Shown here: positions 554 to 28,170 of the stretch, piece after piece
Layout: every line of letters begins with the position of its first letter
Numbering within the stretch: the stretch's first letter is position 1
Source: a virus
Length of the DNA stretch: 32,000 nucleotides
Virus record (IMG/VR): IMGVR_UViG_3300022745_000046
Location: 15,502 to 47,501 of that record
Direction: 5' to 3' (one strand)
Notes under the pieces: generated by a model
Databases searched by the model: none
The model's input: only the letters and a program-made list of their open reading frames with translations
Told to the model about the DNA's origin: nothing
Made by a program: the position numbers and the translations under genes

Positions 554-922
554 TTGCCCTTAGACATTCACGTAATAGATCCAGCAACAGGAAATTCTGT
601 CAGAGTTGACAGAGATGGCTCTCTTCATGTTTCTGCGTCTATCTCTATTACGCCAGTCAGTTCGTCTCTTAAGATTGTTCATGCGATGACGGGATCTGGT
701 GGTTTGCTTTTGACGGCAAAAACGAGAGATAGTTTCTCTGTCTATAATCATTCGACTTCAGTCTTATACTTAACATTTGGAGACGTTGCTTCAACTTCAT
801 CATTCTCTGTTGCTCTGTTGTCAAATGGCTTTTACGAGTCTTCGAATCACTATTCTGGACCAGTAGCAGGAGTCTGGGACAGCCCAGTAACAGGAAGTGC
901 ACAGGTAACTGAGTATACATAA
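554..922 (+). CDS. hypothetical small beta-rich structural protein
   Basis: TTG start at 554 is preceded by a strong SD (tGAGGTAGGac, 544-551). Its TAA stop overlaps the ATG of the fibre gene (TAATG at 920-924), suggesting translational coupling. No motif recognised. Confidence 0.55.
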   Translation: MPLDIHVIDPATGNSVRVDRDGSLHVSASISITPVSSSLKIVHAMTGSGGLLLTAKTRDSFSVYNHSTSVLYLTFGDVASTSSFSVALLSNGFYESSNHYSGPVAGVWDSPVTGSAQVTEYT

Positions 923-3900
923 TGCCACTATATCAACCACCAGGCCAACAGATAACAGTTAATCTATCTCAGACAATAAGTGGAGTTGCCACTGTGTCTG
1001 CAGGTTTGTCTTCGATGAGCTCTGGAGAGCTTGTATTCTCCAATTCGAATGGTGTGTCATTTGGAATGAACAATGGCACAATCACAGCTTCTGTTGCTGG
1101 AGGCGGCGGAGGCGGAGCAGGAAGCTACAACATTCTTGCAGCAGGAACTCAAACAGCAAATTCAACAGGGACTGTTGCTTTTGTCAACAGCAACAATGTC
1201 TCATTTGGAATGAGCAACAACTCTGTCATAACTGCTTCAGTAAGTTATTCTCAGTCAACAGCTCCTTCTGCAATATCAGCAGGAACAGCTATAGCAACAA
1301 ATGGAACAGTTGCTCTTGCAAATTCAAACGGCATCTCATTCGGAATGAATGCTGGAACTATAACTGCTTCATATACTGTTCCAAACGTTCCAGTTCAGAC
1401 AAATCAGTCAATTGGACTTTATGCTTCTGGAAATACAACAGGGCAGTCAAGCTCTTCAACTTTTGATGCTAGATCATTGTCAGTTTCTGGAGTGGGAATA
1501 GTCTCAGTTGGAGAATCTGGCGGGCAGCTTATAATTTCTGCAACAACTGCACAGTCAGTTCAAACACAGAATTCAGTTCAAGTTCTAGGATCATCTGGCA
1601 ATGTTTCTTTTGGAAACGCTAATGGTGTGTCATTTGGCGGTAATGCTTCTACAATAACGGCCTCAGTTGCAGCAGGAGCAACTGCAACGGGAAATCTAGG
1701 CGGCATCTCAGCTGGAACAACTTTGGCAACAAATGGCACAGTTGCTCTCTCTAACAGCAACGGAATAAGCTTTGGTATGAATGCTGGAACTATAACTGCT
1801 TCATACACAGTTCCAACGCAATCTGTTCAGACTCAAAATTCTGTTCAAGTTCTGGGATCTTCTGGAAACATTTCATTTGGAAATGCCAATGGAATTTCAT
1901 TCGGTGGAAATGGTTCAACGATCACAGCTTCATACACTGTGCCAACTCAGACAAATCAGACCCAGGGAATTTACGGAGTAGGAAATACAGCTGGACAGTC
2001 ATCTTCTTCTACATACGATGCAAGAAGCTTGACAGTAAGCGGAGCTGGAATAGTCTCTGTCGGAAATTCTGGTGGATCTATCATAATTTCTGCAACAACA
2101 GCTCAGTCAATTCAGACTCAGAATTCAATTCAAGTTCTTGGATCAAGCGGAAATATCTCGTTTGCCAATGGAAATGGCGTGTCATTTGGAGCAAATGCTT
2201 CAACTGTCACTGCTTCTGTTGCAGCTGGTGCTACAGCAACAGGAAACTTTGGAGGAATATCAGCTGGAACGACACAGGCAACAAACAACACTGTCATTCT
2301 TTCAAATTCAAATGGTATAAGCTTTGGAATGAATGCTGGAACTGTTACAGCTTCATATACAGTTCCAACACAGACAAATCAGACAGAGGGTTGGTATGCT
2401 GTTGGAAACACGACTGGTCAGTCATCTTCTTCAACTTACGATGCCAGAAGTATAACACTGAGCGCTGCAGGCATAATCTCAATTGGCAATTCTGGTGGCT
2501 CAGTTATTATCTCAGCTTCTTCTAATCAATCTGTTCAGACTCAAAACTCTGTTCAGGTTCTAGGATCTAGCGGCAATGTTTCTTTTGGAAATGCAAATAA
2601 TGTAACATTCGGGGCAAATGCTTCCACAATAACAGCATCAATTCCAGCAGGGGCAACAGCAACTGGTAATCTTGGAGCTCTAGCTGCAGGAACACAAACA
2701 GGATCATCTGGCACGATTGCTCTTGTCAACTCAAACGGTATCTCATTTGGAATGTCAAATAGCAGTCAAATAACTGCTTCATACACTGTTCCAACTCAGT
2801 CTGTTCAGTCATACAATATTCTTGCAGCAGGAACTCAGACTGCAAATACGTCGGGAACTGTTTCATTTGCGAATAGCAATAACATATCCTTTGGCATGAG
2901 CAATAGCTCAGTCATCACAGCTTCATTCAGTTACACTCAGTCAGTCGCGCCTAATGCTATATCAGCTGGAACTACTCTTGCTTCTACAGGCACTGTAGTG
3001 TTCTCAAACTCGAACAATGTAACGTTCGGTATGAACAACGGAACAATCACAGCTTCTGCAAATGCTGCTGGAGTTGGTGATGGTTACAATATCATTGCTG
3101 CAGGAACACAGACTGCTAACACGACAGGAACGATAGCTTTCCTTAACAGCAACAGCATTTCATTCGGAATGAGCAATAGCAGCCAAATCACTGCTTCATT
3201 CTCTTATACGCAGTCGACAGCACCAGCAGCATTCTCAGCAGGAACTACTCTTGCTTCAAATGGAACTGTTGCTCTCTCAAACAGTAACGGCATTTCATTT
3301 GGAATGAATGCAGGAACAATTACTGCTTCATACACTGTTCCAAACGTCCCTGCTCAGACAAATCAGACTCTGGGACTTTATGCTTCTGGAAATACAACAG
3401 GACAATCTTCATCTACGACGATAGATGCAAGAAGTTTGACATTGAGTGCCGCAGGCAACGCAAGTTTGGGTTACTCAAATGGAGCAATAGTCGTTTCAGT
3501 TGTGGCAGCAGGAGCAGCTGACGGTGTCAATATTCTTGCAGCAGGAACTCAAACAGCAACGTCAAACGGAACAGTTGCATTCCTGAACAGCAACAACATT
3601 TCATTCGGAATGTCAAATAGCAGTCAGATAACTGCTTCATTCTCATACACACAATCAACTGCTCCTTCTGCAGTCTCAGCAGGAACAACTCAGGCAACAA
3701 ACGGGACGATCGCTCTTTCTAATTCAAACGGAATCAGCTTTGGAATGAACGCGGGCACAATCACAGCTTCATATACAGTTCCCAACGTTCCAGCCCAGAC
3801 AGCACAAACAGTCGGTTACTATGCAACGGGAAACACGACTGGACAGTCATCTTCTTCAACTTACGATGCAAGAAGCATAACTCTCAGCGCTGCAGGAATA

Positions 3901-6586: not shown

Positions 6587-7333
6587 ATGGAAAATAAGAA
6601 CATTCCTGTTCAAGAAGTTGTTGACAACTTGAAGGGAAAAGGTTTCGAGAATGTTGAGCTTATCTCTGGAACAACATACAAAGATAGCTCCACTGTGATA
6701 ATCATTCCGACAAGAGGAATGATCTCTCATAGAGTTGTACAGTCTTGGCAGAACTTGATTGCTCCAATGAATCAGAAGAGAGCAATCATCTTTGCTCAAG
6801 GTCATGAAGTCGGTCATGCTTACAATGAGATGATCAAGAACATCATATCAAATCCAGAATTGTCAAAGTGGAAGTATATCATGACTCTGGAAGATGACAA
6901 TATCCAACCAGCAGATGCTCACATCAGACTTCTTGAAACGATAGAGTGGGGAAAGTTTGATGCTGTTTCTGGTCTGTATTTCACTAAAGGTGAGTACGGA
7001 ATGCCAATGGCATACGGAGATCCAGAAGAATATTTGAGAACAGGTGTTCTGGACTTCAAGCCAAGAGATGTAAGAGAAGCTCTTAAGAGAGGACATGTCA
7101 TGCCAGTAAATGGCATTGCAATGGGCTGCAGTCTGTACAGAATGGATATGTTCAAAGAGATTCAGGGTCCGTGGTTTGTGACTCTGAATGATGTCGTTCC
7201 AGACAAGGGAGTTGCATGCTTCACGCAAGATCTCTACTTCTGTGAAAAAGCAGTCAAAGCTGGAAAGAGATTTGCTGTAGATATGAGAGTCAAGGTCGGA
7301 CATCTTGACGTCAATTCTGGCGTAGTTTACTGA
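6587..7333 (+). CDS. GT-A fold (family-2-like) glycosyltransferase
   Basis: ATG with AAAGG SD. N-terminal beta-strand VIIIPTRG (about 6694-6717). Acidic DxD-type motif TLEDDN (6890-6898). Downstream GCSLYRMDMF and QDLYFCEKAVKAGKRF resemble GT2 acceptor-side motifs. Confidence 0.65.
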   Translation: MENKNIPVQEVVDNLKGKGFENVELISGTTYKDSSTVIIIPTRGMISHRVVQSWQNLIAPMNQKRAIIFAQGHEVGHAYNEMIKNIISNPELSKWKYIMTLEDDNIQPADAHIRLLETIEWGKFDAVSGLYFTKGEYGMPMAYGDPEEYLRTGVLDFKPRDVREALKRGHVMPVNGIAMGCSLYRMDMFKEIQGPWFVTLNDVVPDKGVACFTQDLYFCEKAVKAGKRFAVDMRVKVGHLDVNSGVVY

Positions 7334-7340
7334 GGATAAA

Positions 7341-8033
7341 ATGGCTAAAAAGAAAAGTGAAAAAGTAGTTCAGTCTAACTCTGAAATTCCTGCATGGTCA
7401 GCTCCATACAGTGGTCCACCACTCGAAGCGATTGTTGCTCCTCAACTGTCAAGTCCGACAACACTGAAGAAGCTAGATCTTGCTGCTGGTCAGAGACCAA
7501 GAGAGGGATTCGAAGGAGTTGACATTTGGGAGAAGTCTCAGCATCGTGTAGACTTGACAAAGTTCCCGTGGCCTTTTGAAGACAATTCAGTAGAAGAGCT
7601 TCACTGCTCTCACTACATCGAGCACATTCCAGCAAGAGAAATTGAAGAGAGAGATCTCGCTGACAAGAAGAGGACAGATCTTCTCGGTAAAGATCACTTC
7701 TTTGCATTCTTTGACGAGTGTTATAGAATTTTGGCTCCGGGTGGGTCAATGAAGATCATTTGTCCCGCTCTAAGAAACAACAGGGCTTTTCAGGATCCAA
7801 CTCATAGGAGATTCATTCCTGCAGAAACATTCTTGTATTTGAATGAAGAGTGGAGAAAGATCAATCTTCTTGACCATTATCGTTCAAACTGCAATTTCGC
7901 AGTGAATGTTGTTCCAACAGTTCCAGTTGAGATAACTCTTCTAAACCAAGAGACATCGAACATGAGAATGAACAACTATTGGAATGTAATCATAGACTGG
8001 GATGCAACTCTTAAGTCGATGAAAGTAAAGTAA
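7341..8033 (+). CDS. class I SAM-dependent methyltransferase (Methyltransf_11-like)
   Basis: SD GAGGA. Motif I-like LDLAAGQRPREGFEGVDI (about 7473-7530). FPWPFEDNSVEELHCSHYIEHIP and RILAPGGSMKI match the post-I/II/III pattern of small-molecule/protein methyltransferases. No DPPY/NPPY DNA-methyltransferase motif. Confidence 0.7.
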   Translation: MAKKKSEKVVQSNSEIPAWSAPYSGPPLEAIVAPQLSSPTTLKKLDLAAGQRPREGFEGVDIWEKSQHRVDLTKFPWPFEDNSVEELHCSHYIEHIPAREIEERDLADKKRTDLLGKDHFFAFFDECYRILAPGGSMKIICPALRNNRAFQDPTHRRFIPAETFLYLNEEWRKINLLDHYRSNCNFAVNVVPTVPVEITLLNQETSNMRMNNYWNVIIDWDATLKSMKVK

Positions 8034-15630: not shown

Positions 15631-17541
15631 ATGCCAAATCAAGCTTCTTACACTCCAAAAGATTTCTATATCATAAACAGCGGATCAAAGCCTTTCTCTG
15701 AGGCAGCAATTTCTGCTGTTCATGAACTTGAAAAGATTGAAGCATCTGATAAAGCTCAAGCTGTTCCCTATGTTGCAATCTGGGAAATAGACGAGATGAA
15801 TGGTCATGCGATGCATCCCATCTCTTCAAATCCGTTTGAACCACTCAAACCTCTCACGATGCAGCTCGTTGAGACACCTGACTTCGGAAGATCTCTGAGC
15901 GGAGATGAAAGATTTCTTGAAAGACCGCCTGTCTCTCTTGAGAGAATCACGATAAAGACAGAGAATCCAAGAGGGACAATTTTGTACAGGAGACTTGAAT
16001 TTGCAATGACTGTGCATCGTCCAGACGTCGTATTTGACATGCACATAGATGACAATGGAGTTCATTCAGGAGATGCAGACTCTTGGTCTTCTCTCATTAC
16101 TCCAGGTCAAGCATTTTGTATGGACTTTGGTTGGTCAGCTCCAGCTGGATTGACAAATTCAGTTTTGACAGGTGAATTCAGCCCTATCGAAAACAAAGTT
16201 GACGAATTCGGCAAGACAACTCCAGTTGTCATTCCGTCTAGACAGCAAATAAGATTCAAGGTTACAGAATACAAATTTGATATTGGTGCAGACGGTCAAA
16301 TGAAGTTTGTCATATCTGCTTTTGAAAACGGTGAAGTTGGAATGAGAAGAGCATTTCTTGTTAAGCAGAATAGGGGGGCTAACGAGATTGTCACTCCATA
16401 CGAAAATGACTCTAAACCACTTAAAGAGCTTCTGAGTTCATTCAAGAATGCAGTTAAGAATACCAATGGTGCAATTGTAAAGAACTCAAAAACAAAAACG
16501 GCGAGCATCAGATTTGGCTTCCTGTTTGATACTGTCTTTGCACCCAAAATAAAAGAAGTCTTTGGAACGACTGAATTAAAAGGCATCTTCATGGGAAGGT
16601 TCAATGCAAGAGCTGGAACTCCTGTTGACAAGTATGGCGGTGTCGACATGTCTGGACTTCCAATCAGTGACTTCATTCTTCCGCTTGATCAAATTGAGAG
16701 AGTCTTCAGAGATCTTATCTCAGCTGGAACTCAGATGACGATTTACAATTTCATCAATCCATTTCTTGACTTGATGTGCACCCAAGAAATCTGGGATCGT
16801 TCTGGTCAAAAGGGGCACGATCCGTCAGAGCAGACAATTCCGCACATTGTGATGAAGACAACAACAAACAAGAATAAAGTCGGACCAAACGAAGTAGCAG
16901 TCTATCTCTTTGATGTCAATGAAGCATTTTGCGGTTTGTCTGCAAATGATGACGAAAAAGATCTCGGCATCAACGCACCTCGCGCAACAATAAGAAAAGA
17001 AGTTGAAAAGAAAAATGTTCCTTTCATCTCTCTTGTATCTGGAAACTCTTTCATACTTGAATCATCATTCACTTCGAATCAAGATGAGAAGATGTCCGCA
17101 ATCATGATCAATAGATACTACGGAAAGAATGACACGACAAGAGAAGAGAAAACAACGAAGCCAGATGCTCAGCAGAAAGTTGATAAAGCTCCACCTCCAC
17201 AGCAGGTTTATTCTCCAACACTGACAGGTAAAATAACAATGCTCGGCAATTTTGTCTTTGACACTTTTGCTCTTGTGTGGATAGACTTCGGAGTCTTTAG
17301 ATGGGACGGTGTTTTCAACTTTCATGAAAGAGAAGATGTCATCTCTCCTGGAACTTTCACAACTTCATGGACTGCAATTTCTGCCGGAACTGACCCACTC
17401 GGAACAAAGGGAAGACCAAAGAAGCAGAAAGTTGTTAATCAGACAGTTGCCGTTCCTGTCAAGAGGAAGGGACAGGGAACTCAAGTTGAATATGTGACAA
17501 CTAAAAAGCCAATTGATGAGAGAAATTGGTGGAACAAGTGA
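15631..17541 (+). CDS. putative baseplate hub / tail-tip protein (positional call)
   Basis: 636-aa ORF starting 1 nt after the LysM gene stop. It is the last ORF of the tail module. In P2/Mu-like tails the gpD/gp27-like hub follows X. No motif recognised by eye. Confidence 0.35.
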   Translation: MPNQASYTPKDFYIINSGSKPFSEAAISAVHELEKIEASDKAQAVPYVAIWEIDEMNGHAMHPISSNPFEPLKPLTMQLVETPDFGRSLSGDERFLERPPVSLERITIKTENPRGTILYRRLEFAMTVHRPDVVFDMHIDDNGVHSGDADSWSSLITPGQAFCMDFGWSAPAGLTNSVLTGEFSPIENKVDEFGKTTPVVIPSRQQIRFKVTEYKFDIGADGQMKFVISAFENGEVGMRRAFLVKQNRGANEIVTPYENDSKPLKELLSSFKNAVKNTNGAIVKNSKTKTASIRFGFLFDTVFAPKIKEVFGTTELKGIFMGRFNARAGTPVDKYGGVDMSGLPISDFILPLDQIERVFRDLISAGTQMTIYNFINPFLDLMCTQEIWDRSGQKGHDPSEQTIPHIVMKTTTNKNKVGPNEVAVYLFDVNEAFCGLSANDDEKDLGINAPRATIRKEVEKKNVPFISLVSGNSFILESSFTSNQDEKMSAIMINRYYGKNDTTREEKTTKPDAQQKVDKAPPPQQVYSPTLTGKITMLGNFVFDTFALVWIDFGVFRWDGVFNFHEREDVISPGTFTTSWTAISAGTDPLGTKGRPKKQKVVNQTVAVPVKRKGQGTQVEYVTTKKPIDERNWWNK

Positions 17542-17550
17542 ATCAACTTG

Positions 17551-17559
17551 TGTTATAAT
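17551..17559 (+). promoter_or_regulatory. extended -10 promoter element TGTTATAAT
   Basis: TG-n-TATAAT at 17551-17559, in the 27-nt gap between the tail module and the polymerase gene. It ends 9 nt before ATG 17569, and there is no SD in between. Confidence 0.45.
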
Positions 17560-17568
17560 TGAGTCACT

Positions 17569-18918
17569 ATGACTCGTGTAAACTTTGTTGAATCTTTTTC
17601 TGACAGCAAGGGAACTTATTCAACTGCGTCACAAAATCCATTTTCTGATAATCAAGTAGTTGTTTGTTACGACATTAGAAGAAATAAGAGATTTCTGAAG
17701 AATGAAGGGTGGCTCGACAATCCGTCAACAATCTTTGATCTTAGGATTATATTCGGTGAAGAGTATGATGTCATCAAACTAGCCAAGCTGAAGAACATAG
17801 AGTCAATTCAAGATCTTGAATTTGAAGAAAAGAGATTCTCTGCAAATTTGAAAGCTCTTGAGCAGTCAAAAGTTGACATTCAAGACTTTAGCATCGAGCA
17901 AATCGTACCAGAAGAAATTCTGACAAGTTATCTGTCTGCTCGCTTTAATGCAGTGAAGCAGATCTGGAATGTTGTGACAGACGAAGATATTCTGAATTAC
18001 GAAAAGAATATCTGGCCAGTATACAAAAACATTCTAAAGATTGAAGAGTCAAAGATCTTTGTCGACAAGGAATTCATTTCAAGGTCAATCAAGAAAAATG
18101 ACATCGGAGTTCATGAGAGAAAGTTTCTTCATCACATGAATGACTTGTCAACTGACGGGTTTCTTAAAACTAGAATAAGCCCAGTCGGCTCAAAGACATG
18201 GAGACTGAGAGTAGAGAAGGGTTTCATGTGCATGTCAGTTCCACATGGAATCTGCAGAGAAGCAATTGTAAGCAGATTTGAAAATGGAAAGATTGCCTCT
18301 CTTGACTTCAATGCAATCGATTATAGATGCATCATCAAGACAGTGAATGATCCAGATTTGAATTCGTTCTATGAGAACTGTGATGATTTTCATGCTAGAA
18401 CATCTTCTCTTTTTGATAGCTCAATCGAAAATCTCAGAGACAGAACAAAGAAGATAACGTACGTTCACATCTATGGTGGATCAGTAGAAACTCTCCAGAA
18501 AAATACAATTCTGAACAGAATCAAGATCGTAGAGATGCTCTCTGTTCTAGAGAAGAAATTTACTCCGATTTCTCTTTTTAGAAGCAAGCTTTCATCAGAG
18601 TCAAGAGAGAGAGGTTTTCTGTTCACTCCGGGCGGTCACAAAGTTATTGTAGAAAAGGATGATCATGATGGTAAAGTCATTGGACTTTTTGCACAGACAT
18701 TCAGCTCATTCATTCTAAATGAGACAATCTCAGTTGCTCTAAACTTTCTTGATAATAGGAAGAGCAAACTTCTTTTCACAGTTCATGATGAGCTTATTTT
18801 TGACGTTCATCCAGACGATGAAGATGATTTTTCAAAGCTTGTTGAAGCAATTCAAGCAAAAACAGGTTTCAAGATTAAGATGAAGAAAGGTAAGAACTAT
18901 GCAGAAGCAACTAAGTGA
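17569..18918 (+). CDS. compact family A DNA polymerase (polymerase domain only, 449 aa)
   Basis: Motif A-like LDFNAIDYR (18301-18327; compare DYSQIELR). Motif B-like RDRTKKITYVHIYGGS (about 18438-18485; compare RxxAKxxNFGxxYG). Motif C TVHDELIFDV (about 18778-18807). No 3'-5' exonuclease Exo I/II/III motifs recognised in the N-terminal ~220 aa. Confidence 0.75.
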   Translation: MTRVNFVESFSDSKGTYSTASQNPFSDNQVVVCYDIRRNKRFLKNEGWLDNPSTIFDLRIIFGEEYDVIKLAKLKNIESIQDLEFEEKRFSANLKALEQSKVDIQDFSIEQIVPEEILTSYLSARFNAVKQIWNVVTDEDILNYEKNIWPVYKNILKIEESKIFVDKEFISRSIKKNDIGVHERKFLHHMNDLSTDGFLKTRISPVGSKTWRLRVEKGFMCMSVPHGICREAIVSRFENGKIASLDFNAIDYRCIIKTVNDPDLNSFYENCDDFHARTSSLFDSSIENLRDRTKKITYVHIYGGSVETLQKNTILNRIKIVEMLSVLEKKFTPISLFRSKLSSESRERGFLFTPGGHKVIVEKDDHDGKVIGLFAQTFSSFILNETISVALNFLDNRKSKLLFTVHDELIFDVHPDDEDDFSKLVEAIQAKTGFKIKMKKGKNYAEATK

Positions 18919-19498
18919 AGCAGAAATTATGAAGAATCATGACACTTTCTGGAATCTAGTGAATCAGATTCAGGGACAGAGACTGTCAAAGATCACAAAG
19001 CTTTTTGAATCGAAGTTCGGAAATAGCTACTTCATGGCTCCTGCTTCTTCAAAGACAGAATTTCATAATTGTTTTGTCGGAGGACTTCTGGCCCATTCTT
19101 TGAATGTCGTCAAGAACCTCAAGAAGCTGACAACGACAGTCGCCACAAAGAAATATCCAGATGAAAGCATCATTATTGCTGGACTCTTTCATGACCTCGG
19201 CAAAGCTGGAGACGGAGAGAATGAATATTACACTCCGAACAAGTCAGATTGGCATATCAAGAACGGTATTCTGTTCGAAATAAACAAGAATTGCCTGTAC
19301 TTGCCAACGTCTGAAAGAGGTCTTTTCGTTCTTCAAAAGAATGGAATTGAACTTTCATCAGATGAATATCTTGCAATCAGATTAAATGACGGTCAGTATG
19401 ATGAGACAAATAAGTCTTACAAGATGAAAGAGCCAGAGTTTGCTCTCCTGACTCACTGGGCAGACATGCTGAGTGTTAAGCAAGAGAAATCTCTGTAA
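18899..19498 (+). CDS. HD-domain metal-dependent phosphohydrolase, YhaM-like
   Basis: ATG with AAAGGTAAG SD, overlapping the polymerase 3' end by 20 nt. FHNCFVGGLLAHSLNV (about 19064-19111) and IIAGLFHDLGKAG (19181-19204 for GLFHDLGK) match the H...HD pattern. They also match the GGLL.H(S/T)L.V / LLHDIGK signature I recall for YhaM-type 3'-5' exonucleases. Confidence 0.7.
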   Translation: MQKQLSEAEIMKNHDTFWNLVNQIQGQRLSKITKLFESKFGNSYFMAPASSKTEFHNCFVGGLLAHSLNVVKNLKKLTTTVATKKYPDESIIIAGLFHDLGKAGDGENEYYTPNKSDWHIKNGILFEINKNCLYLPTSERGLFVLQKNGIELSSDEYLAIRLNDGQYDETNKSYKMKEPEFALLTHWADMLSVKQEKSL

Positions 19499-20914: not shown

Positions 20915-23900
20915 TTGAATCCAAAACTTAACGTAAGACAAGGTGCTGCAGGCTCTCGTGGAAATGGCGGAGGCGGCAAGCCTGGGTACCCACTCCCAGA
21001 TAATCTCAAGAACAATCTAGCTCCAGTTGAGGAAGATCTTCTTTCTCTTTCTCCTGTTGACTTTTCTGTTTCAAAGAAACAACACAATGATTCTGACTTT
21101 GTAAAGAAGTCAGATGTTTTAGACATTGTTGTCAAGAGTGTTATTTCAAAACTTCTTGGAGAAGGTGGAGCAGCTGTCAAGGGAGACAGAATAGAGAAGA
21201 AAGATATTGCTCCGACACTTGAGAAATTCTCAAAAGAAGTTCTTTCAAAACTCAAGCACAAGTGGGCAGGTCCAATTGGATCTACTGGAAAGAAGTCAAC
21301 AAGCGGTGATATAGACATTGGCTTCGATTCAGATCTTTCAATTGGTGATGTCGAGAAGATTGTAGATGATCTTGGACTTGAAAACAAAGCAATGAAGGGA
21401 CTTGGGGTTATCAGCATAAAGTTCCCTCAAGTTGATAGTGAGCAACAGGAAAATGGCAAGCACGTTCAAATAGACCTCATGTTCGGTCCAAGAGAGTGGA
21501 TCGAATTTGCATTTTATTCTCCAAGTGAAGGTGAGTCACAGTATTCTGGTGTTCAAGCAAGAGCTCTCTTCATCGCAATGATGAAGGCAGTCACGGGTCA
21601 TTCAGTTTCTCCAGCAAGGGGATTCTTCACGAGCGGAGATAAGAGCAAGGATAAGAAGTACATGAATGATCCAAAGCAAGCTGCTGCTCTCTTGAGTGCA
21701 AAAAGCTCAGAGCAGTGGTCTGTCGACGATCTAAATCAACCATTTGAAAAGATCTGGCTAAAGGCAAAGAAGAGCTTCACTCCTGAGCAAATAGAACAAG
21801 TCAAGAATACAATGAAGGAATTCATGGGAAGCATAAAGAAGCCCGTTCCTAAGGAGCTTGATGAAGCTTCAAGGAAGGGAATGCCAACTGGAATTCAGCA
21901 TCTTGAAGACTTGAATTATGAAGACTTCGTAACATTCCTTGAGAAATATCAGAGTCTTGAGTTAGATGGTGGTCTTGAAGTTTCTGAGAAAGTAGACGGT
22001 TCAGCTGCTCTCGTATTCGGTGTCGAGAATGGAAAACTCTGGACTCAGTCAAAGAAGGGCATGAAGTTCTTCTCATCATCACAGTATGGTGACAAGCCTA
22101 TGTTCAAGCCACTCAGAATGGCCCACGAAGCACTCCAATCAAAGAGTAAGGAGATTATAGGTGCCTGGCCAAAAGACATAGAATTCATGACTGGAGAGAT
22201 CCTATACACAAAGATCCCTAACACAATTGAGTATGGTCCAAATGTGATCATGATTCACGGTGTTCAGAAAAAAGACGGATCTGTTATAAGCGACGAAGAG
22301 TCTAGAAAGCTTGCAACTGCAGTGACAACTGCAGCTCATGGAAAGCTAAATGACGGTCAAGAAGAGTGGAAGTTTGAGTACAAGAGAATTATTCCAAACA
22401 AAGACGTCATGCTTGATGTCAAGAATGAGTATGATTCTCTTGGAGATGTTCTCAAGAGACTCAGAGAACTTGAACCAAACAAGTTAAAGAAAGACGGTAA
22501 GGGACCTTACAAGGCTGCTCTTGAAAGCTTCAAAGCAATTCAGCTTGCAGTCAAGAAGAAGCTTCTCACTCAGCTTAGAAAGCAGAAATCTGTTTACGGA
22601 CCCGAAGGCGGAGCAATAGAGGGAATTGTCTTCAGAGATCTTGACTCTGGTGGGATGGTCAAGCTTGTTGACAAGGATCTTTTCTCAAAGCTCAATCAGT
22701 TTCTTTGGAGTTTCAGAAATGATCTCGACAGAGGAAATAAAGTCGGTGACAAGATGGAGCTCGGAGTATTCCAGAAGTTCCTACAGAATGTTGGCAAAAA
22801 CGTAATCGGTTCAGAAGACATAAGACTCACAACATTTGTCTCGAGACTCAAGAAAATTCAGGATGAGATCCAATTCCCAGAAAATGTAGATACTGCTGAA
22901 AAGAAAGCCGACTATACTCTCGCTTACTACATCAAGAAGAATAATTTGATGTCTGGAGATTACATTCTTCAGTTTGAGAAAGCAGTAGCTGATGCGAAGA
23001 AGAATTATGATGAAGTCAAAGCATCTTGGGATAAGAGAAAGCAAGATGACATCAACTATGAAATAAAAGACGACGAGGGGAATGTCGTAAAGACTGTCAA
23101 GATGGACAAGCTCATCAAGGACAGAACTGATACTTCGTATGAAGAGATGGGAAAGCTTATTGACTCGATGAAGTCAACTGCTGAAGTCATCAAAGGAATG
23201 TCAAATGACGACACAAAGAAGACTGCTCTTCTCAAACTTGTCATGGGGCAGAATAGATTCAACAAGCTTGTTGGAAATGCCGATGATGAAGAACAGGCGA
23301 ATGAGTCAATAGCAATCCTTGAAAAGGATGATGTTTCTGACAAGAAGTTTGATCATGAGAGACAAGTTCTCAATTCATTTAAGGAAAAGCTGGCAAGCAA
23401 AGGAATGAATGCTGACAGCATGAAGGAACTTGGCTCTGGTAATAATGGCTCGGTCTTTGAATTGTCAGACGGAAGAGTTCTCAAGATAACAAAAGATGAT
23501 TCTGAAGCAAGAACTGCAAATCATCTTAAAGGAAAGAAACTTAAGCACGTCATCTTTATTCACGATGTTTTTGCTTTCCCAATCAGGAGGGGAGTAAAGT
23601 GGTACGGTATTGTCGAAGATAAAGCAGAACCGCTTCAAGACGAGGAAAGATTTGACAGTGCAACAAAAGACGTTATAAGAAGTGTAACTGCTGACGGTGA
23701 AGTTCATCATAATCCTTGGACAATGTCGTGGGGTCTCATAAAGAAGAAAGCTCTTCACAATGCATGGGATGAAGAAGTCACTCAAGAAAATCTCGACTAT
23801 CTAGAAGAACTCAGGTTCCCAGATCTTATGAAGGAACTTGAGAAGAATAGAGTCAATTATTCAGATGTTCACGGCGGAAACTTCATGATGAAGAATGGAG

Positions 23901-26900
23901 TTCTTGTTCTTGTAGATCTTGGCGGTCGCTCAGAGTCTCCCGGAAAGCCACCAAATGTTCTTGAGAAGAAGTTAAGAGAAGAACAACACAAAGAGATTCC
24001 TGCAATACTCAAGAAATTTGCCGATAAACTTGAGAAGAAGGGAATAAAGATTAAGAATGAAACTCCACTCGGCTCTGGATCAAGAGGCCAGGCTTTTGAA
24101 ACTCAAGATGGGAAAGTTCTGAAGATAACAAATGACGCTTCTGAAGCTAAAGCATCAATGAAGTTGAAAGATTCAAATAGCGAGCATCTTACAAAAGTTC
24201 TTGATGTTTTCAAGTTCAACCTGAGAGTCGGAAATAGAGAGTTCTTCGGTATTCTTCAGGAAAAGCTTGATAAGCTTTCTCATAAAGAATCATTTGAACT
24301 TGAAAGAGCAATAGACAATTCTCTTCTCAGAATGATTTCACCTGGAAAGATAGAGACATGGGAAACTTTCAAGAGCAATGCAGAGAACATAATTGACAGA
24401 CACAACAGAGATAAAGAAAAATTCTTGAATTCTCTGAAGATTCTTGAAAAATTCAATGTCGACAAAATAATGGATGAGCTGTATCAAGCAAGAATACACT
24501 ACACTGATTATCATGCTGGTAACTTTATGAAGCGTGGTGATAAGTATGTTCTGATAGACTTGGGTTATTCAAAGTCTGAAGGTGCACAAGAGCCACCTAT
24601 TCTTGAAAGGATAGCTCAGATGTCACAGAATTCACTCAGGGAAGCGACAAGTGATCAAGTAGGTGTTACTATAGGTCGCTTTCAGCCTTTTCATGCGGGT
24701 CACGCAGAGATTATAAGAAACCTCACAAAGAAGTTCAACAAGGTCATCGTGATCATTGCTGGAAACTCAAAGGAAAAGAAGAATCCTTTCTCGTTTGAGT
24801 TGAGAAAAGAGATAATGAAAAAGTCTCTTCCTGATGTTTTCTCAAAGCTAGAGATTCACAAAGCTGAAATAGAAGGAAAGGGTTCGGGTTTCATTCCAGG
24901 CATCATTTCTGAGCTTGTCGGAATGGGTAAGACCAAACTCACTCCAGACACTGCGTTCCATGTTCTTGTCGGAGAAGACAGAATTGAAACAATAAAAAAA
25001 CAGTTTGATCTTGCAAAGAATGCAAGAGAGAATAAAGGAATCGCCTTCAATTTTGATCTTGATGCTGTCATGATTCAAGCTCTTCCCGATGTCAAGAATG
25101 ACGATGATTCTGGAAGAGTTTCTGGCACCAAAGTTAGAGAAGCTCTTGCTAGTGATAACAAGGAGGAGGTCAAGAAGTTAATGGATCCTCATCTTGTTTC
25201 AAATGAATCTGATTTTGAAAAGATTTACTCTGAACTTAAGAATCAACTGTCAGCAAGTCAACCTGTCAAGAAGAAAGAGAAAGTTACAGAAGCTCTCTCG
25301 ACATACTTTGATAAACATGATGTCGAAGATGTTGTAACACAGAATGAAGAAGAGCTAAAGAAGAGAGGAATTGAGGTCGGTGGAGAACTTGGATCTGGCA
25401 AGGATGGTGTTGCGTATCAAGTAAACAATAACAGAGCCTTGAAGGTCACAACTGACGTTGGCGAAGCTCAGACTGCTCTTAAGATCATTTCAAGTGGCAA
25501 GAATCTGAAGCACGTAGTTCATTTCTTTGATGTGTTCAGATTTAGAAAGGGAGTCAAGAAAAATATAGAACTCTTTGGAATTGTCACAGAAAGATTGACA
25601 AAGCTTTCAAGAGATGAAGAAGAGAAGTACGATTTCATTTCAGCATTTTGGTTGACAGACGAGAAAGATTCAAGATCAAATCAAATTCTTGACGCAATCA
25701 GAGAGGGAAACTATGACAAGCTTCTTAACATTGTTTATGAAGTTTTCCTTGAAGCAGAAAGAAAAGGTGATCCGCTTGCTGTGGTAGAAGCATCAACTGC
25801 TCCAACTGCAAAGCATGGAGTGTTTAGAAAAAACCCATCTCAACAAAAGGCCCCTCAAATAGACAAAAAGCCTCAAGGTATAAAGAGCATCGCTGGAAGA
25901 AATCCAGAAGATATAGCAAATAGAAAGTTTGACGTTTACAAGAAAACAGCAGAGCACTTCAAGCTTCGTGAAATGATTCAGGATCTGAAATCTCTTGGAA
26001 TAGAATTTTCAGATTTTCACTCGGGAAATGTTATGAAAAGAGGAAATGATTACGTCATCAATGATCTTGGAAGGTCGGGTGGTGGTCTTGATAAATCCGG
26101 AATAAAGCATCTTGAATCAAAGAATCCAGATGACGTTCTTGAATCTATAACTGAGATGGTTATTTCAGAACTTGGAGCAATGAATGGATACGGATTCAGC
26201 CAGACAGGTTTGAATGCAGGGTCTTCAGCTGTTTCAAGATTCAAAAACAGAGTTGATCCCGACTCAGAAGAGTTGTGGCAGAATCAATTGTCAAGAGTAA
26301 GTTTAAAGAATCCTAATTCAGATCTGCAGGAAGACAATCAAGAGATGTTCTCTTCAGGAGAAGTAGATTCTCAGAAGCTTGGAAAGCTTGAGGAAGAGAA
26401 GTGGATCAAGTGGTCAGAAAAAACTGACACAGTTGACTTTGATTTGAAGAAGAGAGCCGGTTCAGGAAGAGGAGAAGCTAAGCTTGCTGCTGAACTTGAG
26501 CTTAGAGGATACGATGTAAAAGAAGAGAGTGAAGGAAAGGGAGAAGGATCATTTGACCTTCTTGTAAATGGGAAGCGCTGGGAAGTTAAAGAGTTCAAAC
26601 CAATAAGAATAGAAACGACAGGACAAAAGCAGATTAGAACAACTCTGAACTTTTTCTATTCATTCTCAGAATCTATTAAGCAAGCACTTGAAGAAATAAA
26701 GACTCTAAATCTTGGAGAAGATGTTTTCAAGATTGGAAAGCTAAATTCTCCATCTCTTGAAAAGTTTGCTGAGAAATCAATGAGCGCAGTTACGAATGGA
26801 AACGTCCCAGTTGGATTGTCTGGTTTTTCAAAAAGCGCTGCTCATCCAAACTATCTTGAAGTTGCAAAAGCTCTTGACTCATTCATAAAAGAATCTGAGA

Positions 26901-27646
26901 AAGCAAAGAAAAGTGGCAAGCTAAAGATCTCTCTAGGCGATGGGCAAGATGCAAAAGACTTGTTCAGCGGAGATATGGATATCTCTGACATAAAATACTT
27001 GATGAAGATGCTTAAGAAGTCAGCTCCTCAAGGATCAGTTAGTGATCTGAATGACATTGGTGCTCTTCAAATTCTAGAAAGTTCTCTCACTGAGAATGGA
27101 ATAAACAAGACAAACTTGACTCAGGAAGTTGTCAATCACTGGAAAGAAGCATTCGATCCAGAAAAGATTCTCGGTGAAGATGAAAAGATTATCATAGTTG
27201 ATAAGGAAAAGGGATTCTTTATCATGCAACCAAAAGATCTTCTTAAGTGGTACGGACCAGCTGGAATTTCCAAGTCAACTCAGCAACTTCGTCCCAGAAA
27301 GGAACTTAAGACAGCAGGACAAGTCCAGCCTCAGCCAGGTGAACAGAAACCAAAGAAGCCAAAGACTCAAGGACAAGCTACATCAAAGAAGACAAAACTG
27401 CCTCAGGGTCAAATAGACTTCATGAGTCCGGAGTATAAGAACATTCTTGATAAGAAGTCAAAGGTTGCTTCAGATGCACTCGATGTGTTCAAGAGAAAGC
27501 TGAGCATTCTTGATAATGCAAAGAAGAGAAAGACAAGTCCAGAAGAACTTCAGAAGAAAGAACAAGACGTCAAGAAAGCAGAAGAAGAAGCAAGAAAGCT
27601 ATTTAGCAAAGTAGGGCTTGATTTTCCGAACATAGAGCAAACTTGA
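20915..27646 (+). CDS. giant multidomain enzyme: Pol-beta NTase + Rnl1-like RNA ligase + 3x protein-kinase-like + NMN adenylyltransferase + PD-(D/E)xK-like + basic C-terminal tail
   Basis: The frame is open from 20879 to TGA 27644-27646. The start is uncertain because the first in-frame ATG is about 540 nt in. TTG 20915 has the best SD (GAGAGGA 20900-20906, 8-nt spacer). TTG 20879 lies only 1 nt after its GGAG. Domain motifs are listed as separate features. Confidence 0.85.
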   Translation: MNPKLNVRQGAAGSRGNGGGGKPGYPLPDNLKNNLAPVEEDLLSLSPVDFSVSKKQHNDSDFVKKSDVLDIVVKSVISKLLGEGGAAVKGDRIEKKDIAPTLEKFSKEVLSKLKHKWAGPIGSTGKKSTSGDIDIGFDSDLSIGDVEKIVDDLGLENKAMKGLGVISIKFPQVDSEQQENGKHVQIDLMFGPREWIEFAFYSPSEGESQYSGVQARALFIAMMKAVTGHSVSPARGFFTSGDKSKDKKYMNDPKQAAALLSAKSSEQWSVDDLNQPFEKIWLKAKKSFTPEQIEQVKNTMKEFMGSIKKPVPKELDEASRKGMPTGIQHLEDLNYEDFVTFLEKYQSLELDGGLEVSEKVDGSAALVFGVENGKLWTQSKKGMKFFSSSQYGDKPMFKPLRMAHEALQSKSKEIIGAWPKDIEFMTGEILYTKIPNTIEYGPNVIMIHGVQKKDGSVISDEESRKLATAVTTAAHGKLNDGQEEWKFEYKRIIPNKDVMLDVKNEYDSLGDVLKRLRELEPNKLKKDGKGPYKAALESFKAIQLAVKKKLLTQLRKQKSVYGPEGGAIEGIVFRDLDSGGMVKLVDKDLFSKLNQFLWSFRNDLDRGNKVGDKMELGVFQKFLQNVGKNVIGSEDIRLTTFVSRLKKIQDEIQFPENVDTAEKKADYTLAYYIKKNNLMSGDYILQFEKAVADAKKNYDEVKASWDKRKQDDINYEIKDDEGNVVKTVKMDKLIKDRTDTSYEEMGKLIDSMKSTAEVIKGMSNDDTKKTALLKLVMGQNRFNKLVGNADDEEQANESIAILEKDDVSDKKFDHERQVLNSFKEKLASKGMNADSMKELGSGNNGSVFELSDGRVLKITKDDSEARTANHLKGKKLKHVIFIHDVFAFPIRRGVKWYGIVEDKAEPLQDEERFDSATKDVIRSVTADGEVHHNPWTMSWGLIKKKALHNAWDEEVTQENLDYLEELRFPDLMKELEKNRVNYSDVHGGNFMMKNGVLVLVDLGGRSESPGKPPNVLEKKLREEQHKEIPAILKKFADKLEKKGIKIKNETPLGSGSRGQAFETQDGKVLKITNDASEAKASMKLKDSNSEHLTKVLDVFKFNLRVGNREFFGILQEKLDKLSHKESFELERAIDNSLLRMISPGKIETWETFKSNAENIIDRHNRDKEKFLNSLKILEKFNVDKIMDELYQARIHYTDYHAGNFMKRGDKYVLIDLGYSKSEGAQEPPILERIAQMSQNSLREATSDQVGVTIGRFQPFHAGHAEIIRNLTKKFNKVIVIIAGNSKEKKNPFSFELRKEIMKKSLPDVFSKLEIHKAEIEGKGSGFIPGIISELVGMGKTKLTPDTAFHVLVGEDRIETIKKQFDLAKNARENKGIAFNFDLDAVMIQALPDVKNDDDSGRVSGTKVREALASDNKEEVKKLMDPHLVSNESDFEKIYSELKNQLSASQPVKKKEKVTEALSTYFDKHDVEDVVTQNEEELKKRGIEVGGELGSGKDGVAYQVNNNRALKVTTDVGEAQTALKIISSGKNLKHVVHFFDVFRFRKGVKKNIELFGIVTERLTKLSRDEEEKYDFISAFWLTDEKDSRSNQILDAIREGNYDKLLNIVYEVFLEAERKGDPLAVVEASTAPTAKHGVFRKNPSQQKAPQIDKKPQGIKSIAGRNPEDIANRKFDVYKKTAEHFKLREMIQDLKSLGIEFSDFHSGNVMKRGNDYVINDLGRSGGGLDKSGIKHLESKNPDDVLESITEMVISELGAMNGYGFSQTGLNAGSSAVSRFKNRVDPDSEELWQNQLSRVSLKNPNSDLQEDNQEMFSSGEVDSQKLGKLEEEKWIKWSEKTDTVDFDLKKRAGSGRGEAKLAAELELRGYDVKEESEGKGEGSFDLLVNGKRWEVKEFKPIRIETTGQKQIRTTLNFFYSFSESIKQALEEIKTLNLGEDVFKIGKLNSPSLEKFAEKSMSAVTNGNVPVGLSGFSKSAAHPNYLEVAKALDSFIKESEKAKKSGKLKISLGDGQDAKDLFSGDMDISDIKYLMKMLKKSAPQGSVSDLNDIGALQILESSLTENGINKTNLTQEVVNHWKEAFDPEKILGEDEKIIIVDKEKGFFIMQPKDLLKWYGPAGISKSTQQLRPRKELKTAGQVQPQPGEQKPKKPKTQGQATSKKTKLPQGQIDFMSPEYKNILDKKSKVASDALDVFKRKLSILDNAKKRKTSPEELQKKEQDVKKAEEEARKLFSKVGLDFPNIEQT
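21180..21500 (+). other. domain: Pol-beta-superfamily nucleotidyltransferase
   Basis: IGSTGKKSTSGDIDIGFD (21275-21328) matches hG[GS]x9-13DhDh; compare Pol beta GSFRRGAESSGDMDVLL. A third-carboxylate strand candidate is HVQIDLMF (Asp at 21473-21475). Confidence 0.55.
21900..22740 (+). other. domain: ATP-dependent RNA ligase, T4 Rnl1-like (covalent nucleotidyltransferase)
   Basis: Motif I EKVDGSA (Lys codon 21989-21991; T4 Rnl1 is KEDGSL). Motif III-like MTGEILYTK. Motif IV EGIVFRD (22619-22639). Motif V MVKLVDKD (about 22655-22678). Confidence 0.6.
23410..23940 (+). other. domain: protein-kinase-like module 1
   Basis: Gly loop LGSGNNGSVF (from 23429). Beta3 Lys in RVLKITKD. SEA helix-C Glu. 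Catalytic loop YSDVHGGNFM (Asp 23864-23866). DFG-equivalent VDLGG (about 23912-23926). Confidence 0.6.
24050..24580 (+). other. domain: protein-kinase-like module 2
   Basis: LGSGSRGQAF (from 24068). KVLKITND. YTDYHAGNFM (Asp 24506-24508). IDLGYS. Confidence 0.6.
24655..25200 (+). other. domain: NMN adenylyltransferase (NadM/NatV-type HxGH nucleotidyltransferase)
   Basis: VGVTIGRFQPFHAGHAEII (His codons 24692-24694 and 24701-24703). VIVIIAGNSKEKKNPFSFELRKEIM. C-terminal SGTKVREAL (about 25121-25147), equivalent to the ISSTxxR motif. Confidence 0.7.
25370..26080 (+). other. domain: protein-kinase-like module 3 (with a larger insert)
   Basis: LGSGKDGVAY (from about 25387). RALKVTTD. FSDFHSGNVM (Asp 26012-26014). 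INDLGRS. Confidence 0.6.
26400..26700 (+). other. domain: PD-(D/E)xK nuclease-like module
   Basis: GSGRGEAKLAAELELRGYDV...GSFDLLVNGKRWEVKEFK. Asp at 26555-26557 and E-V-K at 26582-26590 fit D-x(n)-E-x-K. This is a weak single-motif call. Confidence 0.35.
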
Positions 27647-28170
27647 TGCAGAGTTGGAATGCTATATTCGTAGAAGACAAAGAGTATCAACTTCTCAATA
27701 GCAGTCTAACTTCAATAAAATTCAGTAATGCTTCAAAATTTGACCTCGCTCTTCTCATGAGTAAAATGGAAGAGCGAGGTGTTCCTTTGAGTTATACTTC
27801 TGAACTCACAGAGATCAAATTCACTCAACTTAGAAATGGAGATCACGGAGATTATCTGAATGGAGTTATCCGTCTCTCTTCAGATAAAACAACTCAATCT
27901 CTTATGGACAAGATCTTTGTTCATGAGCTTGCTCATCATGTTGATTGCACGAATAATATCACTGATGATGACTCTATCTTGAGAGAGAAGAAAAAGAAGT
28001 CGAAGTACATGAAAGACAAGTACGCAAGAAAAGATGTGTTTGAGTATTTTGCTGTTGGCTTTGAAGTCTTTTATTGTGGTACAGATGAAGAAAAAAGATT
28101 CATGAAGAAGAAAAATCCCATTCTTTTTTCAGTCATTTCTAAACTTCATAAAGAGCATTGCAAGAAATAA
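27646..28170 (+). CDS. small HExxH zinc-metallopeptidase-like protein
   Basis: ATG 27646 overlaps the giant ORF stop (TGATG). IFVHELAHHVD contains HExxH. No other motif recognised. Confidence 0.55.
   Translation: MQSWNAIFVEDKEYQLLNSSLTSIKFSNASKFDLALLMSKMEERGVPLSYTSELTEIKFTQLRNGDHGDYLNGVIRLSSDKTTQSLMDKIFVHELAHHVDCTNNITDDDSILREKKKKSKYMKDKYARKDVFEYFAVGFEVFYCGTDEEKRFMKKKNPILFSVISKLHKEHCKK

Follow-up and report, generated by a model that had tools for sequence, protein, structure and literature searches.

A single giant gene of the virus record IMGVR_UViG_3300022745_000046 (IMG/VR) encodes three paralogous kinase-like modules, each of which is very probably a minimal domain of the protein-kinase fold that has been selected for catalysis. 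We analysed positions 15,502 to 47,501 of this record, a stretch of 32,000 nucleotides (nt) that we call the window; coordinates throughout are positions in this window, and all the features described are on the + strand. The modules, M1, M2 and M3, are all within one open reading frame (ORF), where the order of the domains is nucleotidyltransferase (NTase)-like domain, Rnl1-like RNA ligase, M1, M2, NMNAT-like domain, M3 and C-terminal region. Our analysis demonstrates the paralogy of the modules, their kinase fold and its truncation, the conservation of the catalytic set, the homology to T7K (the kinase of T7 gp0.7) and the domain context. We see an even chance that they are active T7K-like protein kinases used in host takeover or anti-defence, with proteins among their substrates.

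The three units carry the same motifs in the same order, as had been claimed in an earlier reading of the sequence alone (henceforth the sequence-only reading). A regular-expression scan of the ORF located LGSG at nt 23429, 24068 and 25388, LK(I/V)T at nt 23480, 24119 and 25439, the catalytic-loop motif DxHxGN, whose Asp codons (23864, 24506 and 26012) are exactly where that reading had put them, and the DLG motif (Asp codons in Table 1). The pairwise alignment that it had proposed as a check gave BLASTP E values of 6e-33 for M1 and M2 (35% identity), 2e-20 for M2 and M3, and 1e-15 for M1 and M3, and the paralogy of the modules is thus far above chance. The description of three tandem units of ~170-230 amino acids (aa) had to be amended. 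M1 and M2 are indeed in tandem, but M3 is set apart from M2 by a ~240-aa cytidylyltransferase/NMNAT-like domain, and the lengths range from ~200 to ~260 aa, the upper value being that of M3, because it contains an insert of ~60 aa.

To describe the modules we gathered 31 giant homologues, in which a hidden Markov model (HMM) found 75 modules; 56 of these were aligned as profile A2, and the residue numbers given here are those of the M2 segment. The residues G25, K40, T42, D168 and D185 are invariant in this alignment, and G23, G28, D44, E47, A48, N173, G187 and S189 are nearly so. The AlphaFold2 model of M2 built on the module alignment (model id mcabb7ed792b9) has a predicted local distance difference test score (pLDDT) of 95.5 and a predicted template modelling score (pTM) of 0.90. 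Foldseek found 449 matches to it in the PDB at E<=1e-3, and the best 50 of the 449 are all protein-kinase-like, including MK2, JNK1, CK2, APH(2''), fructosamine-3-kinase (FN3K) and YabT. The comparison of profile A2 with PDB sequences also gave protein kinases as its top matches (YopO at 3.4e-4, MSK1, MK2 and TTK), whose G-loop, Lys, catalytic loop and DFG are in correct register with the profile; the register of the helix-C Glu is shifted by about one helical turn in the alignment of the profile with MK2. The kinase fold suggested by the sequence-only reading is therefore borne out by the model, and the motifs stand in the register of solved kinases.

The fold is complete at its N-terminal end and cut short at the other. 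Each module has an entire N-lobe, with the G-loop, the Lys of VLK(I/V)T and the Glu of (S/G)EA. After the hinge, the M2 model and the sequence have four helices, the catalytic loop (F/Y)xDxHxGNxM, two strands and the metal-binding DLG. The modules end ~15-20 residues past the DLG, without an activation segment and without helices F-I, which means that most of the usual C-lobe is absent. The DLG Asp of M1 is residue 1013 of the ORF, and M2 opens with its lead-in helix at around residue 1048.

The catalytic residues are conserved well beyond the window. In a census of 341 full-length modules from 164 proteins, the Lys, the Asn and the DLG Asp are each present in 339 and the catalytic Asp in 337, with all four together in 333; the helix-C Glu is present in 318 and replaced by Asp in 20. 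We thus rejected the hypothesis that the copies are decayed pseudokinases, in line with the sequence-only reading, which had argued for three retained (predicted) active sites; M1 and M3 also have clear orthologues in other phages. Other positions vary more. At +2 from the catalytic Asp, 257 of the 341 modules have His and 20 have the Lys of Ser/Thr kinases; as the middle residue of the DLG motif, 239 have L, 50 have I and 14 have P; the Ser that follows this motif (S189) is found in 282, and a Gln in the last N-lobe strand (GIVQEKL) in 179. A conserved tail, '...S.S.G..P..LE', closes each module of the window (23940-23968, 24580-24610 and 26090-26116), and its Glu is present in 256 modules of the census. 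Candidate roles for this tail are linker, docking element and cleavage site.

The modules belong to a large family. A HMMER scan of 1.84 billion cluster representatives with profile A2 identified 4,227 proteins at E<=1e-3, 1,784 at E<=1e-10 and 312 at E<=1e-30. The 171 proteins that we surveyed have between 0 and 5 modules each. Multi-copy modules are therefore the norm here, and kinases with a truncated C-lobe were already described in polyvalent phage proteins (PMC5512222), so the triplication is less unusual for a phage protein than the sequence-only reading had supposed. Stand-alone modules of 220-330 aa make up 33 of the surveyed proteins, one of them in a T4-like contig amid head and tail genes, and their existence implies that the domain works without NMNAT or ligase. 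Searches for named relatives were uninformative: tblastn of the whole giant protein against 50,697 GenBank phage records gave nothing over the kinase modules and only weak matches for the NMNAT and the N-terminal part, a word-indexed homologue search with the module profile returned five proteins, none of them named, and cluster look-ups of the relatives gave no informative names. A search for related loci in IMG/VR with M2 alone found no match.

The modules are old paralogues. We found no DNA-level repeat in register across M1-M3, which argues for protein-level paralogues that diverged long ago and against recent duplications. The sequence-only reading had proposed a phylogeny to date the duplications; we built a neighbour-joining tree of the 75 modules with 200 bootstraps. 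A clade uniting M1 with modules of other proteins (P0002_m3, P0003_m3, P0004_m2, P0005_m2 and P0007_m1) was recovered in 171 of the 200 bootstraps, and the nearest neighbour of M3 in every homologue is the module right after the NMNAT; the clade of type T2, to which M2 belongs, is poorly resolved. Since these orthologous clades span proteins that are 42-50% identical overall, the duplications are older than the divergence of those proteins, and each module lineage has been kept since it arose by duplication. We rejected recent tandem duplication on both grounds, i.e., the lack of an in-register DNA repeat and the orthologous clades of the tree. The order of module types after the ligase is T1-T2 in the window and T2-T1 in P0004 and P0005; this swapped order indicates a shuffling of whole modules.

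Several kinds of comparison place the modules closest to T7K. When the M2 model was searched against the predicted viral structures of BFVD, uncultured marine phage proteins came first (E 3e-10, TMq 0.60), followed by short 'protein kinases' of T7-like phages (RSB1, Paz, IME278 and others). The sequence plan of T7 gp0.7 (LGNGHFSAAY, then RVIKVG, a helical segment, FDMHSGNIM and ITDPVSFS) continues with a charged linker and the shut-off domain. We aligned eight T7K-like kinase domains to obtain a profile and compared it with the module profile using hhalign. The part from the G-loop to the hinge matched with 97.2% probability (E 3.4e-11) and the part from the catalytic loop to the DFG equivalent with 96.3% (E 1.9e-9). 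In the latter part S189, the Ser after the DLG, falls on T7K Ser216, reported as an inhibitory autophosphorylation site (PMC13645617). In a PHROG scan of single modules, the gp0.7-type phrog_15752 was matched by 12 of the 56 (best 8e-8), phrog_18305 'kinase' by 18 and the unnamed phrog_3809 by 18. T7K is active despite its truncated layout, which makes the layout of the modules compatible with protein-kinase activity.

Among the comparators that the sequence-only reading had listed (RIO, Bud32, APH and T7 gp0.7), the last is thus the closest, and the others fell short. RIO1 was matched by one module of 56 (E 0.034), the match to Bud32 has an E value of 0.031 and 13.8 bits against a cut-off of 125 (NCBIfam), and the window modules matched ABC1 and APH in Pfam with E values of 0.0073-0.15 and bit scores under the gathering cut-offs. 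The model PF18762 (Kinase-PolyVal) was matched by a single module (E 0.016) and by none of those in the window. We rejected membership of PF18762, APH, ABC1, RIO and Bud32, since all matches are under the family cut-offs. We likewise rejected the idea that the DxHxxN loop on its own identifies a small-molecule kinase, because this loop is shared by T7K, whose protein-kinase activity is proven. On these profile comparisons we place the modules in a distinct family of their own, a distant sister of T7K, and count them as members of neither the T7K nor the Kinase-PolyVal family.

The context of the modules, RNA ligase and NMNAT, had been left out of the sequence-only reading and is what bears on their substrates. 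The RNA-ligase domain is present in 30 of the 31 homologues. Pfam RNA_lig_T4_1 matches the window protein at E 5e-4 and 11 of 15 homologues, the best at 3.4e-7. The AlphaFold2 model of the domain has a pLDDT of 83.8, and its top Foldseek matches are ATP-dependent RNA ligases (P. pacificus Rnl3 at 8.6e-5, T4 Rnl1 at 9.3e-4, Naegleria Rnl, TbREL1 and tRNA ligase), with DNA ligases ranking next. In searches of PDB sequences, neither the N-terminal 840 aa nor a ligase profile gave anything significant. The same profile matched 21 IMG/VR viral contigs and had no match in 185,579 species-representative genomes. The NMNAT-like domain was matched by Pfam CTP_transf_like (PF01467, E 5.7e-11), by phrog_395 (E 7e-19) and by NMNAT families of NCBIfam; its best PDB matches are NadM (2qjt, 2.5e-7) and an archaeal NMNAT (1f9a), and the strong NMNAT match is confined to the first ~60 residues of the domain.

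Modules tend to follow these two domains closely. A module starts within 100 aa after 72 of 90 NMNAT domains and after 44 of 56 ligase domains, and 51 of the 54 modules right after an NMNAT score best as type T3, the type of M3, although these counts come from proteins picked by module score and overstate the co-occurrence. NMNAT and module can also make up a whole gene, as in P0106 (NMNAT-K, where K is a module; 512 aa) and P0129 (K-NMNAT, 529 aa), the latter from the same syntenic slot in a 180-kb phage contig. The architectures are shuffled among relatives of the window protein, which itself has seven domains. The homologues add InPase (3e-33), SLT (6e-24 to 4e-29) and 2H phosphoesterase (3e-11), none of which is in the window protein, as well as HExxH regions, and one protein of the homologous slot has a weak ART-PolyVal match. 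Not all of them keep the modules: the homologue with the 2H domain (P0027) has none, another (P0028) has ligase and NMNAT without modules, and modules are often found without any ligase in the architecture census. The shuffled multi-enzyme layout, with InPase, SLT and 2H in homologues, assigns the giant protein to the class of polyvalent proteins (PMC5512222), and it is probably a phage multi-tool to take over or disarm the host. Three proteins (P0010, at ~365-470, P0019 and P0021) have an extra segment near the ligase, 'VFRGLRGL...YWSANPK...VYATTAATAE', that looks ADP-ribosyltransferase-like by eye; a Pfam scan of P0010 found no family there.

That the modules are catalytically active, act on proteins, serve in anti-defence and inhibit themselves is our inference, and the mechanism would be as follows. 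Each module would bind Mg-ATP through its Lys, Glu, Asn and DLG Asp, and the Asp of the catalytic loop would drive the transfer of the gamma-phosphate. The likeliest substrates would be Ser/Thr, and perhaps Tyr, residues of host proteins, possibly also of phage proteins, and their phosphorylation would serve, as with T7K, in host takeover or anti-defence. Different target preferences may come from the three paralogue lineages and from the domains to which these are tethered. If the Ser aligned with T7K Ser216 has the same function, the modules may also switch themselves off in a similar manner.

The evidence on function pulls two ways, with homology pointing to a protein kinase and domain adjacency to a coupled chemistry, and a number of observations weigh against protein kinases. 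The modules lack the canonical protein-substrate groove. The link to T7K is distant: the module HMM aligned to T7K itself in two collinear pieces with only 13.7 bits, the modules carry DLG where T7K carries DPV, and they are without its C-terminal shut-off/DNA-binding domain. What follows each of them in the window is another module, the NMNAT or the C-terminal region, and Pfam and PHROG scans found no shut-off/DNA-binding domain there. Pfam Pkinase was matched by only 2 of the 56 modules, whereas ABC1 and APH were each matched by 17 (best 1e-5, over the catalytic loop only). The TM-scores of the M2 model against solved kinases in the PDB are low (0.36-0.48), which we attribute to the reduced C-lobe. 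That Lys, Glu, Asp, Asn and Asp come together at the ATP site is deduced from alignment, and kinase activity is a prediction across the whole module family. Finally, the strict succession of NMNAT and T3 and the minimal K-NMNAT and NMNAT-K genes fit metabolic coupling better.

Such coupling would make at least M3, as a T3 module, a small-molecule kinase that feeds the adjoining NMNAT, a role that we consider unlikely. For instance, the module would convert nicotinamide riboside (NR) into nicotinamide mononucleotide (NMN), from which, with ATP, the NMNAT would produce NAD+, and the kinase fold would have replaced the P-loop ribosylnicotinamide kinase (RNK) of NadR-like phage enzymes such as NARP3. 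The NAD+ would be rebuilt against NAD-depleting defences, or supplied to ADP-ribosyltransferase modules. Pairs of a kinase and a HIGH-motif nucleotidyltransferase are a common two-step design (NadR, RibF, HldE). The placement of T3 modules after NMNAT, the complete two-domain genes, the NadM/archaeal signature of the NMNAT domain (GRFQPFHxGH and ISGTxxR) and the weak ABC1 and APH matches are all consistent with this role, and a phage fusion of NMNAT and kinase has been proven to make NAD+ from NR (NARP3, PMC13464706). Yet the closest characterised relative of the modules is a protein kinase, T7K, and modules are common without NMNAT. Besides, the NMNAT domain resembles known NMNATs well over its first ~60 residues only, the census behind the adjacency is biased to module-rich proteins by its selection on module score, and we know of no NR kinase with a kinase fold. 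Neither PnuC, Nampt nor any other NAD-salvage gene was seen in the window or the 10-kb flanks of L002, L005 and L006, three 180-200-kb contigs with a related gene in the same slot.

The modules next to the ligase, M1 and M2, could have a different coupled chemistry, namely that of polynucleotide 5'-OH kinases healing RNA ends for the Rnl1-like ligase in tRNA repair. They would be analogous to T4 Pnkp plus Rnl1, or to fungal Trl1 (ligase-kinase-CPDase), with a protein-kinase fold instead of a P-loop. Fused ligase and kinase repair enzymes are well known, the ligase is nearly universal in the homologues and mostly has a module right after it, one homologue has a 2H phosphoesterase, a domain of end-healing type, and Pfam and NCBIfam scans found no P-loop kinase or phosphatase domain in the giant protein. 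We nevertheless hold this role to be highly improbable: the homologue with the 2H domain is devoid of modules, as is P0028 with its ligase and NMNAT, modules often occur without ligase, no polynucleotide kinase with a kinase fold is known to us, and homology indicates a protein kinase. The two coupled chemistries could be combined, with NMNAT-T3 as a two-step NAD+ rebuilder endowed with a kinase-fold NR kinase and the ligase-adjoining modules as RNA 5'-kinases. One protein would then perform both RNA repair and NAD+ reconstitution, by kinase chemistries not known for the fold, which we regard as quite improbable. We give very little credence to modules that bind or hydrolyse ATP without phosphotransfer, as ATPase switches like Bud32 and RIO, or that perform another chemistry, e.g., AMPylation. 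The absence of the activation segment and of the substrate-binding lobe, the weak matches to Bud32, RIO and RfaY, and the tethering of modules to nucleotide-using enzymes would fit such functions, but the full phosphotransfer set, catalytic Asp included, is nearly universal in the census, the Bud32 and RIO matches (E ~0.03) are far under the family cut-offs, and T7K, which is truncated in the same way, is a highly active protein kinase (PMC13645617).

The features of the giant gene are listed in Table 1. Its start is probably the TTG codon at 20915, because the ribosome-binding site GAGAGGA is upstream and the resulting N-terminus, MNPKLNV..., resembles those of the homologues, among them the protein P0001, which also has 2,243 aa. 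The NTase-like domain is kept in 17 of the 31 homologues, nearly always immediately upstream of the ligase, and has ten invariant residues (G62, S63, G65, K67, S70, G71, D72, D74, Q125 and D127). It has no match in Pfam, NCBIfam or, searched with a profile of the domain, PDB sequences, and its identification as a putative pol-beta-type nucleotidyltransferase comes from the motif. The C-terminal region is conserved over its full length in P0004-P0007 and partially in other homologues; it has no Pfam or NCBIfam match, and its conserved block gives the impression, from the motif, of something nuclease-like.

Table 1. Coordinates of the giant gene and of its domains in the window.
Feature	Positions	Strand	Details
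Giant polyvalent protein gene	20915..27646	+	2,243 aa; listed ORF begins 20879
N-terminal conserved domain, putative pol-beta-type nucleotidyltransferase	21095..21889	+	Motif GSTGKKxxSGDIDxG ... QxD
RNA-ligase-like adenylyltransferase domain and helical C-terminal part	21890..23359	+	Motif I EKVDGSA, ATP-dependent type
Module M1 (type T1)	23381..23968	+	G-loop LGSGNNG; Lys 23483; Glu 23504; Asp 23864; Asn 23879; DLG Asp 23915
Module M2 (type T2)	24020..24610	+	G-loop LGSGSRG; Lys 24122; Glu 24143; Asp 24506; Asn 24521; DLG Asp 24557
NadM/archaeal-type NMNAT-like domain	24635..25339	+	GRFQPFHAGH ... ISGTKVR
Module M3 (type T3)	25340..26116	+	G-loop LGSGKDG; Lys 25442; Glu 25463; Asp 26012; Asn 26027; DLG Asp 26063
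C-terminal region	26120..27643	+	Conserved block 'GRGE..LAAELE.RG ... YD..V.G..WEVKE'

The giant gene is part of a replication block and is not beside head genes: it lies between the polymerase PolA on one side and an ATLF-like peptidase, a gp32-like single-stranded DNA-binding protein (SSB) and UvsX on the other. The window also carries T4-type tail-tube and baseplate genes. The same slot in 180-200-kb contigs is occupied by genes of other compositions: a 1,318-aa LIG-K-NMNAT-K (where LIG is the ligase) in L002 (10001-13957), a 529-aa K-NMNAT in L005 (10001-11590) and a 709-aa NMNAT-(weak ART-PolyVal)-K in L006 (10001-12130). Domains seem to be gained and lost particularly often in the slot between PolA and the peptidase, SSB and RecA genes.

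The immediate neighbours have features of their own. The start of the ATLF/M90-like zinc metallopeptidase gene (27643-28170; HELAHH, Pfam ATLF E 1.7e-8) overlaps the stop of the giant gene, and this neighbour is kept in L002 and L005. Compared with the internal HExxH regions of two giant homologues, the peptidase matched one weakly (E 0.083) and the other not at all; it may act in processing or as an additional effector. In the region of PolA (15631-18918), the family-A polymerase match is only on the 449-aa ORF 17569-18918 (Pfam profile positions 141-379), and the preceding 636-aa ORF is without matches. L002 and L005 have the same split arrangement, which suggests that PolA is either encoded by two genes or highly diverged. 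The stretch from PolA to the giant gene contains an ORF (18899-19498) resembling HD-type metal-dependent phosphohydrolases (phrog_5889 E 4e-22; phrog_28876 E 2e-11).

Further away, the ORF at 922-6531 encodes 1,869 aa without a single lysine, with 0.3% Glu, 1% Asp and 30% Ser+Thr, plus Gly, Ala and Asn, and contains repeats such as 'NSNG(I/V)SFGMNAGTITAS'. Without a match in Pfam or PHROG, it is probably a fibrous or decoration protein. Weak PHROG matches link the adjacent ORFs just downstream (6587-8033) to a glycosyltransferase (phrog_12406, E 7e-5) and to a methyltransferase (phrog_6636, E 3e-7). A small ORF (8875-9183) matches the peptidyl-tRNA hydrolase PTH2 (E 4.9e-6), a translation- or RNA-related function.

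Minimal phage kinases (T7K), C-lobe-less kinases of polyvalent proteins, and NMNAT and RNA ligase in phages are already known. What appear to be undescribed are a large DLG family that is above no Pfam cut-off, arrays of up to five long-diverged paralogues, and the close association of its modules with a NadM-like NMNAT and with an Rnl1-like ligase. T7K disarms many bacterial defences by mass phosphorylation, and its ~222 homologues are nearly all in T7-like phages (PMC13645617). The modules form a much larger, unnamed sister family, with the 4,227 representatives counted above, and the contexts that we surveyed are large T4-like myovirus contigs from metagenomes. If they are active protein kinases, takeover and anti-defence by phosphorylation would be far more widespread in phages than documented, and the arrays of paralogues would be a natural experiment on the target preference of a minimal kinase core. 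If the NMNAT-linked copy is instead a metabolite kinase, it would provide a new enzymatic route for the reconstitution of NAD+. With ~200 aa, the domain is among the smallest kinase cores with a full catalytic set, and is thus useful for structural and engineering work.

Four known systems resemble parts of the giant protein. In the fused RNA-repair enzymes (T4 Pnkp plus Rnl1; fungal and plant Trl1), as here, an Rnl1-like adenylyltransferase is directly followed by one or more kinases, and one of the homologues adds a 2H domain; the kinases of those enzymes are P-loop enzymes, whereas the modules have the protein-kinase fold. The NadR-like NMNAT-RNK of NARP3 (PMC13464706) similarly has NMNAT then kinase in one phage polypeptide, with an NMNAT of the HxGH/ISxTxxR type. 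Its kinase is a P-loop ribosylnicotinamide kinase, in contrast to the modules, and it is paired with a PnuC transporter, of which neither the window nor the flanks of L002, L005 and L006 showed any.

Kinase-PolyVal (PF18762) is a kinase without C-terminal subdomain found in polyvalent phage proteins by Iyer, Burroughs, Aravind et al. in 2017, and such truncated kinases were predicted to modify host proteins (PMC5512222). Like the modules, it has lost the C-terminal subdomain and retained the active-site residues, frequently has a Gln in the last N-lobe strand, and is present in giant multidomain phage proteins with SLT, InPase and ART as well as in stand-alone versions. It differs in having been described from (pro)phages of Verrucomicrobia, Chlamydia and Bacteroidetes (PMC5512222). 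The association with RNA ligase and NMNAT is absent from that description, and no ligases were seen with the 2H domains of its polyvalent proteins (PMC5512222). The modules are analogous to Kinase-PolyVal and possibly related to it.

The closest parallel is T7K, a proven hyperactive Ser/Thr/Tyr protein kinase with a broad anti-defence role, whose attached DNA-binding domain targets it (PMC13645617). Both have the G-loop, the Lys of (V/I)(L/I)K, a helical insert, the FDxHxGNxM loop and the DFG equivalent, after which the kinase domain ends, and both, T7K together with its Autographiviridae homologues, are found only in phages. They differ in their settings: T7K is encoded by T7-like podoviruses, whereas the modules occur in one to five copies in giant multidomain proteins or in small stand-alone proteins, in ~180-200-kb contigs of T4-like myoviruses.

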